From assembly GCA_030649345.1 (NCBI GenBank), contig JAUSKK010000038.1, positions 1 through 32,000 of the forward strand: a stretch of DNA of 32,000 bases, written 5' to 3'. This document shows positions 4,726 through 26,201 of this stretch, piece after piece. A model generated the notes under the pieces. The model was not told where the DNA came from and ran no database searches. It saw only the letters and a program-made list of their open reading frames with translations. The DNA comes from Candidatus Iainarchaeum sp. Lineage in GTDB: Archaea; Iainarchaeota; Iainarchaeia; Iainarchaeales; 0-14-0-20-34-12. Position 1 is the stretch's first letter. Each line of letters opens with the position of its first letter. The translations under genes were made by a program, and so were the position numbers.

Positions 4726-4982
4726 TATCTTTTTCTCCGTGTTTTGTACATTGGCAAATGATCTAGTTTTCGGGCTTGCCATTTCAGTAATTGTTCTACA
4801 ATCCAAGTAATTACGTAAGCAATTCCGAATACTACAATTAATTCAGGCCATTTTCCGGCCTTAAAAAAATAGGTAGTTAAATCATGGCTCCAGACTTTAA
4901 AGGAAACCAATACAAAAACAGTTACAATTACACTAATTAAAAATATGGCCATTTTTTCAATGAATAAAAGTTTTCGTCCCAT
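4725..4982 (-). CDS. small membrane protein (2 predicted TM helices)
   Basis: The 85-aa ORF has two hydrophobic stretches (IFLISVIVTVFVLVSF and LIVVFGIAYVITWIV). Its ATG overlaps the ligase stop codon by 1 nt and its own stop overlaps the next ATG, which suggests translational coupling. Confidence 0.5.
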   Translation of the reverse strand: MGRKLLFIEKMAIFLISVIVTVFVLVSFKVWSHDLTTYFFKAGKWPELIVVFGIAYVITWIVEQLLKWQARKLDHLPMYKTRRKR

Positions 4983-8430: not shown

Positions 8431-8534
8431 GGGCGTTAGTGCGATTAAAATTAGTAAATTTTAATGCGTGATTAAAACTTAGAGTTTTAATACGCCCTGC
8501 TTAGGCACATTAAAACTAAGGATTTTAATTGTGA
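8431..8534. repeat. cluster of three AU-rich hairpins sharing ATTAAAA(Y)...(R)TTTTAAT arms
   Basis: The stems are ATTAAAATT/AATTTTAAT (8444-8466), ATTAAAAC/GTTTTAAT (8471-8491) and CACATTAAAA/TTTTAATTGTG (8506-8533). The first two hairpins are enclosed by GGGCGT (8431-8436) pairing with ACGCCC (8492-8497). Confidence 0.55.
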
Positions 8535-8628: not shown

Positions 8629-8793
8629 TGAGGGTGATGAGATTTGAACTCATGTCGTAAGCTAATTTGAATCCTTTTTCCAGTTTCGTATGATCGAGCG
8701 TTAGCGAAGATCATACATCCCGGATGCATCGAAACCACGGAGTGGTTTGGATTCCCAAAGCTTAAATGCTAAACCAGGCTACACTACACCCCC
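8629..8793 (-). tRNA. tRNA-Pro (anticodon UGG) with a 90-nt intron (8664-8753) at position 37/38
   Basis: Exon 1 (8793-8754) is GGGGGTG TA GTGT AGCCTGGTTTA GCAT T TAAGC TT-TGG-G. Exon 2 (8663-8629) is A GCTTA CGAC ATGAG TTCAAAT CTCAT CACCCTC A. The acceptor pairs at 7/7 positions with one G-U, and the anticodon stem TAAGC/GCTTA is perfect. The splice sites sit in GG|A and TT|A bulges around a 4-bp TTTG/CAAA helix, with an outer AATCC/GGATT helix, giving a bulge-helix-bulge. No CCA is encoded. Confidence 0.85.
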
Positions 8794-25512: not shown

Positions 25513-25812
25513 TGAGTATTGGCAGTAGGGTCGAATGAAATGAGACCCTACAACAGCCTACTCTCGCGGCTAGGCGAGATTGGGGACGCCGAGATCCAAA
25601 CCGCGGGAACCAAGGTTCCAGCAGAAAACTGTGGTTTTCTGTGGCCCATAAAACCTGTTGGTTTTATTTGGCCCTCAGTTTTAGGTTAATCCTGATCCCT
25701 CCTTATTTCGAGGTTAAATCGGCGGACCAATTTTTGATAACAACATAAAATCAATGATTTTATGTGTCCCGCAAAATCTTTGATTTTGCTTGGAAACTTT
25801 TTTTAAAAGTTT
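25513..25812 (-). other. hairpin-rich noncoding tract with a 16-nt duplicate of the tRNA-Trp 3' end
   Basis: No credible ORF is present. Consecutive perfect stems are GTAGGGTC/GACCCTAC (25525-25551), TCTCGC/GCGAGA (25561-25578), GGAAC/GTTCC (25606-25619), CAGAAAAC/GTTTTCTG (25622-25641), ATAAAACC/GGTTTTAT (25648-25667), ACATAAAATCA/TGATTTTATGT (25743-25765) and GCAAAATC/GATTTTGC (25771-25789). TTGGGGACGCCGAGAT at 25580-25595 repeats 25812-25827. Confidence 0.35.
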
Positions 25813-26084
25813 TGGGGACGCCGAGATTTGAACTCGGACCAAAAGGTAACTTCTCAGATCAATTTTTTGTTTTGTTTGCCTTTTTTTATATCATCGTTCT
25901 TTTCAGAACTCATCACGCAACAGTTTTTTTCAGTACTGTGCTGCTGTAGTGAAACGAAAGCACAATTAAAACGAACACGTTTTAATGTGCATTAAACCAT
26001 TATGGTTTAATTGCAGCACGTTCGACCAACCGGAACCCCGGTTGAGCTGGAGCCTATTGCGCTGCCAGGTTACGCCACGTCCCC
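25813..26084 (-). tRNA. tRNA-Trp (anticodon CCA) with a 199-nt intron (25848-26046) at position 37/38
   Basis: Exon 1 (26084-26047) is GGGGACG TG GCGT AACCTGGCA GCGC A ATAGG CT-CCA-G. Exon 2 (25847-25813) is A CCTTT TGGT CCGAG TTCAAAT CTCGG CGTCCCC A. The acceptor and T arm are perfect. The anticodon stem has 4 Watson-Crick pairs plus one U-U, and the variable loop is only 4 nt. The BHB is less canonical than in tRNA-Pro. Confidence 0.75.
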
Positions 26085-26201
26085 ATATCATACCCTTCGG
26101 GTACGATACCTCCTGTTGTAGAATCTTCGCTATTGCTCGATTCTACGTTAGGATACCTCCTTTGTTGAGATAATTATGTGTGTTAGAATTTGTTTTAAAT
26201 C

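Follow-up and report, generated by a model that had tools for sequence, protein, structure and literature searches.

Among described systems, the closest to the locus analyzed here is the tRNA-Trp intron of Haloferax, which guides methylation of tRNA positions 34 and 39 and forms a stable circle (PMC3326292; PMC11408192; PMC7994747). The tRNA-Trp intron of Sulfolobus solfataricus, at 65 nucleotides (nt), likewise forms a stable circle and carries 7-bp complementarities at positions 34 and 39, with no consensus C/D boxes (PMC3326292). Here, we describe the tRNA-Trp gene of a DPANN archaeon, Candidatus Iainarchaeum sp. (assembly GCA_030649345.1, contig JAUSKK010000038.1, positions 1 to 32,000 of the forward strand; this 32,000-nt stretch is referred to as the window). 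The 199-nt intron of this gene is probably built of two layers, an ancestral C/D-type guide module of ~91 nt and an inserted composite repeat of ~108 nt, with the module having decayed in this genome.

Compared with the intron guides of Haloferax and Pyrococcus, the module resides in the same host gene at the same intron position and places two antisense elements, in the same order, against positions 34 and 39. A target five nucleotides upstream of a D-type box, a precursor substrate, and the L7Ae, Nop5, and fibrillarin proteins would also be alike (PMC11408192, PMC7994747, PMC3326292). In contrast, the DPANN module, which lies outside the Euryarchaeota, has no box C before the C34 guide, and its D'-hairpin-C' unit is the sole conserved protein-binding motif; the second kink turn (K-turn), where present, takes the form D-hairpin-C after guide 2. 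The Sulfolobus intron and the DPANN module are both box poor with complementarity to positions 34 and 39, but the latter keeps a covarying K-turn with GA/GA pairs and a 12-nt spacing. An intron-borne tRNA-Trp guide, known from Euryarchaeota and hinted at in Sulfolobus, would thus extend to DPANN archaea in a non-textbook layout.

The tRNA-Trp gene and its intron

The minus strand of window positions 25813-26084 holds the only tRNA-Trp(CCA) gene of this genome (1.3 Mb, 94.6% complete). The intron splits the tRNA one base after the anticodon, and excising 26046-25848 yields a 75-nt cloverleaf with an intact anticodon loop, which ARAGORN calls as tRNA-Trp(CCA). The only anticodon-stem mismatch in the spliced tRNA is U28.U42. 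A 199-nt intron at 25848-26046 had been proposed from the nucleotide sequence alone (here, the original prediction), and the clean tRNA-Trp(CCA) obtained upon excision confirms it. Its description as unusually long holds for archaea in general and fails within the lineage, where 199 nt is ordinary: the tRNA-Trp introns of relatives span 71 to 254 nt, and in this genome, ARAGORN predicts an intron, up to ~200 nt long, for 29 of its 44 tRNA calls. The gene is divided as follows.

26047 to 26084, minus strand: exon 1 (tRNA positions 1-37; anticodon CCA at 26050-26048), from hand reading, the spliced fold, and alignment with the tRNA-Trp genes of G001 and G002
25848 to 26046, minus strand: intron, 199 nt, at the canonical 37/38 position, with boundaries that agree with those of relatives' tRNA-Trp introns
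26013 to 26045, minus strand: 5' portion of repeat element A, consisting of a hairpin (CAACCGG-GGUU-CCGGUUG), a linker (GUCGAAC), and GUGCUGC as the 5' strand of stem 2, from nhmmer and ~14 genome copies
25960 to 26012, minus strand: repeat element B, twin AT-rich hairpins at the stem/loop junction of the second hairpin of A, from 22 genome copies with a common fold
25931 to 25959, minus strand: remainder of element A, made up of the loop (UUUCGUUUCACUACA), GCAGCAC as the 3' strand, and a tail of 7 nt, from comparison with short-form A copies that lack B
25914 to 25925, minus strand: guide-1 position (AACUGUUGCGUG), not complementary to C34 here; relatives have xUGGAGCG at the same place
25910 to 25913, minus strand: D'-type box AUGA, aligned with CUGA, CCGA, CGGA, CAGA, or ACGA of relatives
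25896 to 25909, minus strand: K-turn hairpin GUUC-UGAAAA-GAAC, corresponding to the covarying stem of relatives and part of the best match of a model built without the window
25888 to 25895, minus strand: C'-type box GAUGAUAU, its second GA lost by alignment with relatives (RAUGAYGA)
25875 to 25887, minus strand: guide 2, in which AAAAGG (25884-25879) pairs with C39-U44 of exon 2; the register is fixed in relatives
25848 to 25857, minus strand: 3' strand of the splice motif, in which UGA(G) pairs with intron nt 2-4 (helix h'), GAAG lies against C32-C35, and UU plus A38 form the 3' bulge; read by hand and from a cofold of mini-substrates
25813 to 25847, minus strand: exon 2 (tRNA positions 38-73), from hand reading and the spliced fold

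A guide module is conserved in related genomes

The 3' part of the intron, the 91 nt that remain beside the repeats, is the counterpart of a module in the tRNA-Trp introns of 18 other genomes. Two of these (G001 and G002) belong to the same family as the window and align with it from ~25927 to the 3' splice site, while their 5' intron sequence is unrelated. A pattern representing a C34 guide beside a K-turn (TGGAGNNYTGA, 10-20 nt, ATGAYGA) was scanned over 215 genomes with a reversed control; it retrieved three more tRNA-Trp introns from two other families and no reversed-control match. A covariance-model search of 151 genomes of the order then returned 23 matches, the five weakest of which lay in coding regions; one of the other 18 was the module of the window itself. 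The genuine match in G078 scored below the coding-region match of that genome and was added by verification. Counting that of the window, 19 genomes from 8 families of this DPANN order have the module within their tRNA-Trp intron. A metagenome scan retrieved only contigs identical to G002. The tRNA-Trp gene of G003 is intronless (L060 1501-1574), and that of G168 has a 112-nt intron devoid of the guide module (L034 1434-1616); therefore, the module has been lost or replaced repeatedly.

Across the 18 relatives, guide 1 contains an invariant UGGAG and usually reads UGGAGCG, followed by a D' box of CUGA (n = 9), CCGA (n = 5), CGGA (n = 2), CAGA (n = 1), or ACGA (n = 1). In the hairpin that follows, the first base is G and the last is C in every case. 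Pairing is complete (100%) at the four outermost pairs, and compensatory changes are seen at three of them; none of 500 shuffles reached the observed score, and slid registers were 35-58% paired. Box C' reads RAUGAYGA, and guide 2 is 12 nt long. The elements NNGA, G...C hairpin, and RAUGA are present in all 19 copies, which thus contain the internal D'/C' motif of a box C/D RNA. K-turns are composed of a stem, a 3-nt bulge, and tandem G.A pairs. The GA directly 5' of the module stem, together with N-A-U-G-A directly 3' of it, is a predicted K-turn of this composition, and D', hairpin, and C' would form one such turn of the kind bound by L7Ae.

Both guides match their targets in a fixed register. 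In the 18 relatives, guide 1 pairs with G31-G37 and intron nt 1, such that C34 lies opposite the fifth nucleotide upstream of D'. These helices contain 8-11 bp, junction bases included, and 97% of alignment cells are paired, versus 27-46% in shifted registers. Intron nt 1 covaries with its guide-1 partner (U:A in 7 cases, A:U in 10). Guide 2 is complementary to A38-U44 as well as the last base of the intron, placing C39 opposite the eighth nucleotide after C', with 90% of cells paired, versus 25-48% upon shifting; position 43 covaries with guide 2 (C:G, n = 9; U:A, n = 7), as does the last intron base (U:A, C:G, A:U). When guides were permuted among sequences, 0 of 2,000 permutations reached the observed pairing. 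Because both guides pair across exon-intron junctions, it is the unspliced precursor that they read, and covarying junction bases are direct sequence evidence that guiding precedes splicing.

The targets of the module, C34 and position 39, are the two positions methylated in Haloferax (PMC3326292, PMC11408192, PMC7994747). By analogy, the likely products would be 2'-O-methylcytidine at position 34 and a 2'-O-methylated nucleotide at position 39, installed by Nop5-fibrillarin. Fibrillarin, Nop5, and L7Ae are all encoded in the genome of the window. The ancestral layer would have run as a short 5' leader, guide 1, D', hairpin, C', 12-nt guide 2, and the 3' strand of the splice motif.

The box assignments of the original prediction require revision in this light. 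All of its motifs lie on the minus strand where it placed them (GTGATGA, 25916-25910; CTGA, 25906-25903; GATGATA, 25895-25889; CTGA, 25857-25854), and only rarely does a shuffled intron contain one or more RTGATGA along with three or more CTGA (P = 0.0014; 20,000 mononucleotide shuffles). The supposed C box GUGAUGA, however, aligns with GCG+CUGA of relatives, in which GCG terminates guide 1 and CUGA is D'. The first CUGA, taken as a box, sits in the stem and loop of the K-turn hairpin. The terminal CUGA, also taken as a box, is not conserved (UUGA, GGGG, and GGGA occur elsewhere) and pairs as the h' splice helix. Only the C'-like GAUGAUA was correctly assigned, being a true C' by alignment. 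The reported pairing of AAAAAGG with exon-2 CCUUUU is real and falls at the conserved position-39 guide, guide 2. Searches with the C/D families of Rfam gave no match at gathering or permissive thresholds, and comparison of tRNA-Trp introns among relatives revealed conservation of the guide module in 18 of them and not of the earlier box scheme. An intron-borne guide like that of Haloferax, as had been suggested, is thus apparent in the 18 relatives, whose module targets positions 34 and 39; in the window, its C34 half is gone.

The copy in the window is degenerate

Where relatives carry the C34 guide, the window reads CUGUUGCGUG, which can form only scattered pairs with the C34 region and is not antisense to C34. 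We conclude from this comparison that the C34 guide has been lost in this genome. Decay would also account for D' reading AUGA and for the absence of the second GA from C', leaving guide 2 as the only element that still matches its target. In the window, guide 2 is mismatched at A38 and set in a +1 register, shared with G081 and G082, in which position 39 faces the ninth nucleotide after C'. In comparison with G001 and G002, the guide (AGCAGG to AAAAGG) and exon 2 (CCUGCU to CCUUUU) carry two paired changes.

The altered guide 1 (CUGUUGCGU) has 9 bp of complementarity to positions 22-30 of its own tRNA (shuffle P = 0.04, post hoc). The match covers the 3' strand of the D stem, position 26, and the 5' strand of the anticodon stem, with C25 opposite the fifth nucleotide upstream of AUGA. 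Nothing indicates a new target for this guide, although two other exact 10-mer matches (on C33 and C53) were themselves not examined. A search for a replacement C34 guide elsewhere in the genome yielded none that was convincing. A GGAGCC-AUGA site at window position 4891 was considered and rejected, as it is at chance level and has neither hairpin nor C'.

Several results weigh against the two-layer reading or against a functional guide within it. A covariance model built from the 18 relatives alone recovers only the hairpin and C' of the window; this is the top match in the window (10.1 bits), with an E value of 0.27 window-wide and 0.0017 within the intron, and a whole-genome search with the same model did not recover the module. 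Because of this partial recovery, the homology of the guide-1 and guide-2 positions in the window rests on orthologous position and on alignment with the two genomes of the same family. The AAAAGG/CCUUUU match may in part reflect A/T drift on both sides. A box C before guide 1 is missing from all 19 copies, and guide 2 is not followed by a conserved box D. The central helix of the splice motif (CUCC/GAAG, position 32 with intron nt -3) contains a C34.A mismatch, which is shared by G001, G002, and G079, and helix h' competes with hairpin 1 of the repeat. Finally, no target-site duplication flanks the repeat in the intron.

It is quite possible that the whole module is a dead relic in this genome and that harmless removal by splicing is the only reason for the intron to persist. 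Alone among the 19 copies, that of the window lacks a UGGAG guide, and it has the weakest D' and C' boxes; the limited recovery by the window-free model points the same way. In addition, deletion of the intron in Haloferax abolishes both methylations with no growth defect (PMC11408192). On the other hand, the K-turn stem and both GA dinucleotides of the sheared pairs are intact, the two changes in guide 2 match two in its own exon 2, and the +1 register is also seen in G081 and G082, which otherwise look intact.

Missing boxes and a permuted layout

Because neither an upstream box C nor a conserved box D is present, assembly of an active ribonucleoprotein (RNP) on one K-turn is hypothetical. 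The window intron likewise has no terminal K-turn, with neither a box C near its 5' end nor a box D near its 3' end. A GA-containing D box after guide 2 occurs in 3 of the 19 copies (G012, G016, and G019) and is absent from the window. A CAAA at this place was considered as a degenerate D box and dropped, as CAAA, AAAA, AGAA, AACG, AAUU, AAGC, and others are found there.

In the same three genomes, the 12-nt guide 2 is directly followed by another motif built like the first; G052 and G030 show it in a less clear form. It consists of AUGA or ACGA, a G...C hairpin, and then GAUGACA, AGUGACA, or AAUGAAA. The occurrence of this second K-turn-like motif in five lineages (L071 1554-1580, L103, L106, L097, and L098) implies a permuted ancestor with two K-turns; families f1, f14, and f27 have one K-turn only. 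Box C/D guides of the canonical euryarchaeal type are ordered C-guide-D'-C'-guide-D. The two-K-turn form, in which a hairpin closes each K-turn, is ordered guide, D', C', guide, D, C, or in full exon 1, guide, D', hairpin, C', guide, D, hairpin, C, exon 2. We tentatively suggest that the tRNA-Trp intron of this DPANN order may encode a circularly permuted C/D guide, reduced to one K-turn in many lineages, that would act only on the unspliced precursor. If active, the reduced form would represent a minimal methylation RNP with one K-turn and two guides; to our knowledge, such an architecture has not been described for natural C/D RNAs. The 19 natural variants, from the minimal 71-nt intron of G079 to the decayed copy of the window, provide a series for asking how much C/D architecture is needed to place fibrillarin.

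An alternative is that the module serves mainly in cis as a folding or timing device rather than as a methylation guide, whereby pairing with both strands of the anticodon stem and binding of L7Ae control formation of the splice motif. The guides cross the junctions, and their pairing is mutually exclusive with the anticodon stem and the splice motif. The leader of uninvaded introns, at 9-20 nt, permits a hairpin in cis, and the absence of terminal C and D boxes is compatible with such a role. However, C34 lies exactly five nucleotides upstream of D', and the 12-nt spacing gives position 39 its canonical distance; both targets are methylated in Haloferax (PMC3326292), and a pure chaperone needs no such register. 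We consider this alternative unlikely.

Standalone C/D small RNAs (sRNAs) of the order share the internal build of the intron module, with the same D'-hairpin-C' unit, a UGAAAA or UGAA loop, and 12-nt guides (C49:22540 of this genome; L025; L041). These sRNAs also possess a canonical terminal C (AUGAUGA), a terminal D (CUGA), and a terminal stem, which the intron module does not. The sRNA at C49:22540 (G000, minus strand) is the sole strictly canonical C/D sRNA found in the genome; its layout is AUGAUGA, 12 nt, CUGA, hairpin, GUGAUGA, 12 nt, CUGA, enclosed by a GGC/GCC terminal stem. Homologues with the same two guides occur in other families (L025 in G050 and L041 in G123).

A scan of the genome collection for a canonical arrangement (CUCCA...UGAUGA-5 nt-UGGAGnnCUGA) gave one archaeal match, L087, too few for a comparison with Euryarchaeota. 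This locus (L087 3440-3523, from the Methanomicrobiales metagenome-assembled genome JAXDAH010000205.1) is a euryarchaeal tRNA-Trp-like gene with a short intron, at the start of which AUGAUGA adjoins the anticodon loop. Next come a 12-nt guide that ends in UGGAGCA and a CUGA, and the intron resembles a half-size (C, guide, D) guide.

Dispersed hairpin repeats occupy the 5' part of the intron

The other ~108 nt of the intron (26045-25938), including the twin hairpins, are a nested copy of two dispersed hairpin repeats, termed A and B. In a BLAST search of the pre-tRNA against its own genome, intron nt 1-109 matched 17 other places; the left boundary of A in the intron is uncertain by ~3 nt. The second stem of A, GUGCUGC/GCAGCAC, encloses a loop of ~15 nt. 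This stem around two AT-rich hairpins had been noted in the original prediction and is indeed present, but it belongs to a copy of a dispersed repeat and not to the guide. Elsewhere in the genome, B is found inside hairpin 1 of A or alone, and A also occurs without B. All 22 B copies share a two-hairpin consensus fold, and in the first hairpin, matched changes are seen on both arms (AAACC/GGUUU, ACACC/GGUGU, AAAUC/GAUUU) in an alignment that was read by eye and left unscored.

Copies of A and B are noncoding, lie at unrelated loci, and have conserved ends and structure at 75-92% identity, as in MITE-like dispersed repeats. Five of the 14 A copies are accompanied by direct repeats of target DNA (13-38 bp) that end exactly at the element boundary. 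Four of these exceed shuffled controls and one (13 bp) is marginal; one duplicates the 3' end of a tRNA-Gly. Like miniature hairpin-type mobile repeats, A and B are short, noncoding, and multicopy, with compensatory hairpins, nesting, and some duplicated targets. In contrast to such elements, their duplications are unusually long and often imperfect, with none at the intron copy, and no transposase has been linked to them. Transposition of tRNA introns has reportedly taken place in Thermoproteales, a possible parallel to the insertions described here.

In uninvaded relatives, the leader between the 5' splice site and guide 1 is only 9-20 nt long. None of the 18 relatives has the A/B element in its tRNA-Trp intron, and some among them have unrelated repeats in the leader; G002 (152-nt intron) and G001 (221 nt) each carry their own dispersed repeats. 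In the window, element B, nested in A, would have landed 1-4 nt downstream of the 5' splice site. Such an insertion was probably tolerated because the intron is spliced out.

The preservation of B hairpins by compensatory changes across 22 copies, and the location of several A and R copies (R being a further repeat, described below) within 1-2 nt of tRNA or exon ends, could be taken to mean that the twin-hairpin element is a functional domain of the intron RNA, such as a stabilizer of a circular intron or a small RNA of its own. This seems highly improbable, as the 18 relatives have nothing or unrelated repeats in its place, and the majority of copies lie between genes or at gene ends, with the target sequence duplicated at some. 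Passive insertion remains the preferred explanation for this layer.

Repeats are not confined to this intron. Among the tRNA introns of at least 40 nt in the genome, 17 of 19 share segments with other loci. The shared segments measure 30-98 nt and recur in other introns or immediately downstream of other tRNA genes. A CU-rich hairpin with a purine tract (CCUUUUCUUUCUU...AAGAAAGAAAA UGUACGUUGCC AAAAGAAAGAA) is the most frequent of them. One example of an intron with a shared segment is the 88-nt intron of tRNA-Pro(GGG) at window positions 8629-8793; a copy of a B-like hairpin lies at 8505-8533. The tRNA introns of these small genomes thus act as landing sites for hairpin repeats, which explains both their unusual lengths and the missed or mislabeled genes of standard tRNA finders.

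Gene calling and splicing

Such failures are evident at the tRNA-Trp gene itself. In its default run, ARAGORN called no tRNA here, and the Rfam tRNA model missed the gene at gathering and permissive thresholds; the only Rfam match spanning 25810-26084 was of the transfer-messenger RNA clan (12.7 bits). With introns allowed, ARAGORN moved the intron by 3 nt and called tRNA-Lys(CUU) with a 200-nt intron. This identity was rejected: tRNA-Lys(CUU) and tRNA-Lys(UUU) genes are present elsewhere in the genome, which has no other tRNA-Trp, and the orthologues in the 18 relatives are tRNA-Trp(CCA), so the call is wrong. ARAGORN itself calls tRNA-Trp(CCA) for 16 of the 18 orthologues; the remaining two (G052 and G019) are called Gly(CCC) via a shifted intron and were read by hand as tRNA-Trp(CCA). 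The proposition that the box-like motifs arose by chance in an intron full of repeats, or that the gene is a tRNA-Lys(CUU), has the intron-mode call and the lack of an Rfam C/D match in its favor but can be dismissed as already refuted by the tRNA-Trp(CCA) orthologues with their conserved covarying module and by the clean spliced product.

The intron is best explained as being removed by the archaeal splicing endonuclease, with the exons joined by the RtcB ligase; the genome encodes RtcB and one EndA of 178 amino acids, the latter at C53:11332-11592. Extra-loop alpha4-type splicing enzymes of DPANN archaea have been linked to heavy disruption of tRNA genes (PMC5829648). The splice bulges are A36-G37-C and U-U-A38, and h' pairs UGA(G) with intron nt (1)2-4. 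This register agrees with a bulge-helix-bulge, in which two 3-nt bulges flank a 4-bp helix between tRNA positions 32-35 and intron nt -6 to -3. For the window, the energy model forms h' and not the mismatched central helix. Relatives of family f27 have a textbook bulge-helix-bulge with a perfect CUCC/GGAG helix. The sequence GAGAAGUU|ACC is conserved in G002.

Repeats flanking the gene

Two further features lie outside the intron.

26087 to 26113, minus strand: repeat R (GGAGGUAUC plus a hairpin and UGAU), 2 nt upstream of the tRNA 5' end, from genome-wide copies
25580 to 25596, minus strand: second copy of the tRNA-Trp 3' end (AUCUCGGCGUCCCCAA), comprising its last 16 nt, 232 nt downstream, by comparison with 25812-25827

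The sequence GGAGGTATC is found at 18 sites in the genome, 15 of them in the hairpin-UGAU form, and several abut tRNA ends. The R hairpin has 9 bp with compensatory changes and lies within 1-3 nt upstream of the 5' ends of tRNA-Trp, tRNA-Asn, and tRNA-Ser; R also occurs at window positions 26152-26160 (minus strand). In antisense orientation, it is located directly after exon 1 of tRNA-Leu(CAA) and tRNA-Glu(UUC). Another copy of R precedes the L7Ae gene. In reverse complement, R is similar to the 3' end of the 16S rRNA of this genome (GAACCUnCGG...GAU(C)ACCUCC).

The duplicated tRNA-Trp 3' ends bracket a hairpin-rich noncoding insert and mark a further insertion behind the gene. The same pattern is seen at C27:48880-49010, where a 17-bp duplicate of a tRNA-Gly 3' end surrounds an element that has A at one end and R at the other.

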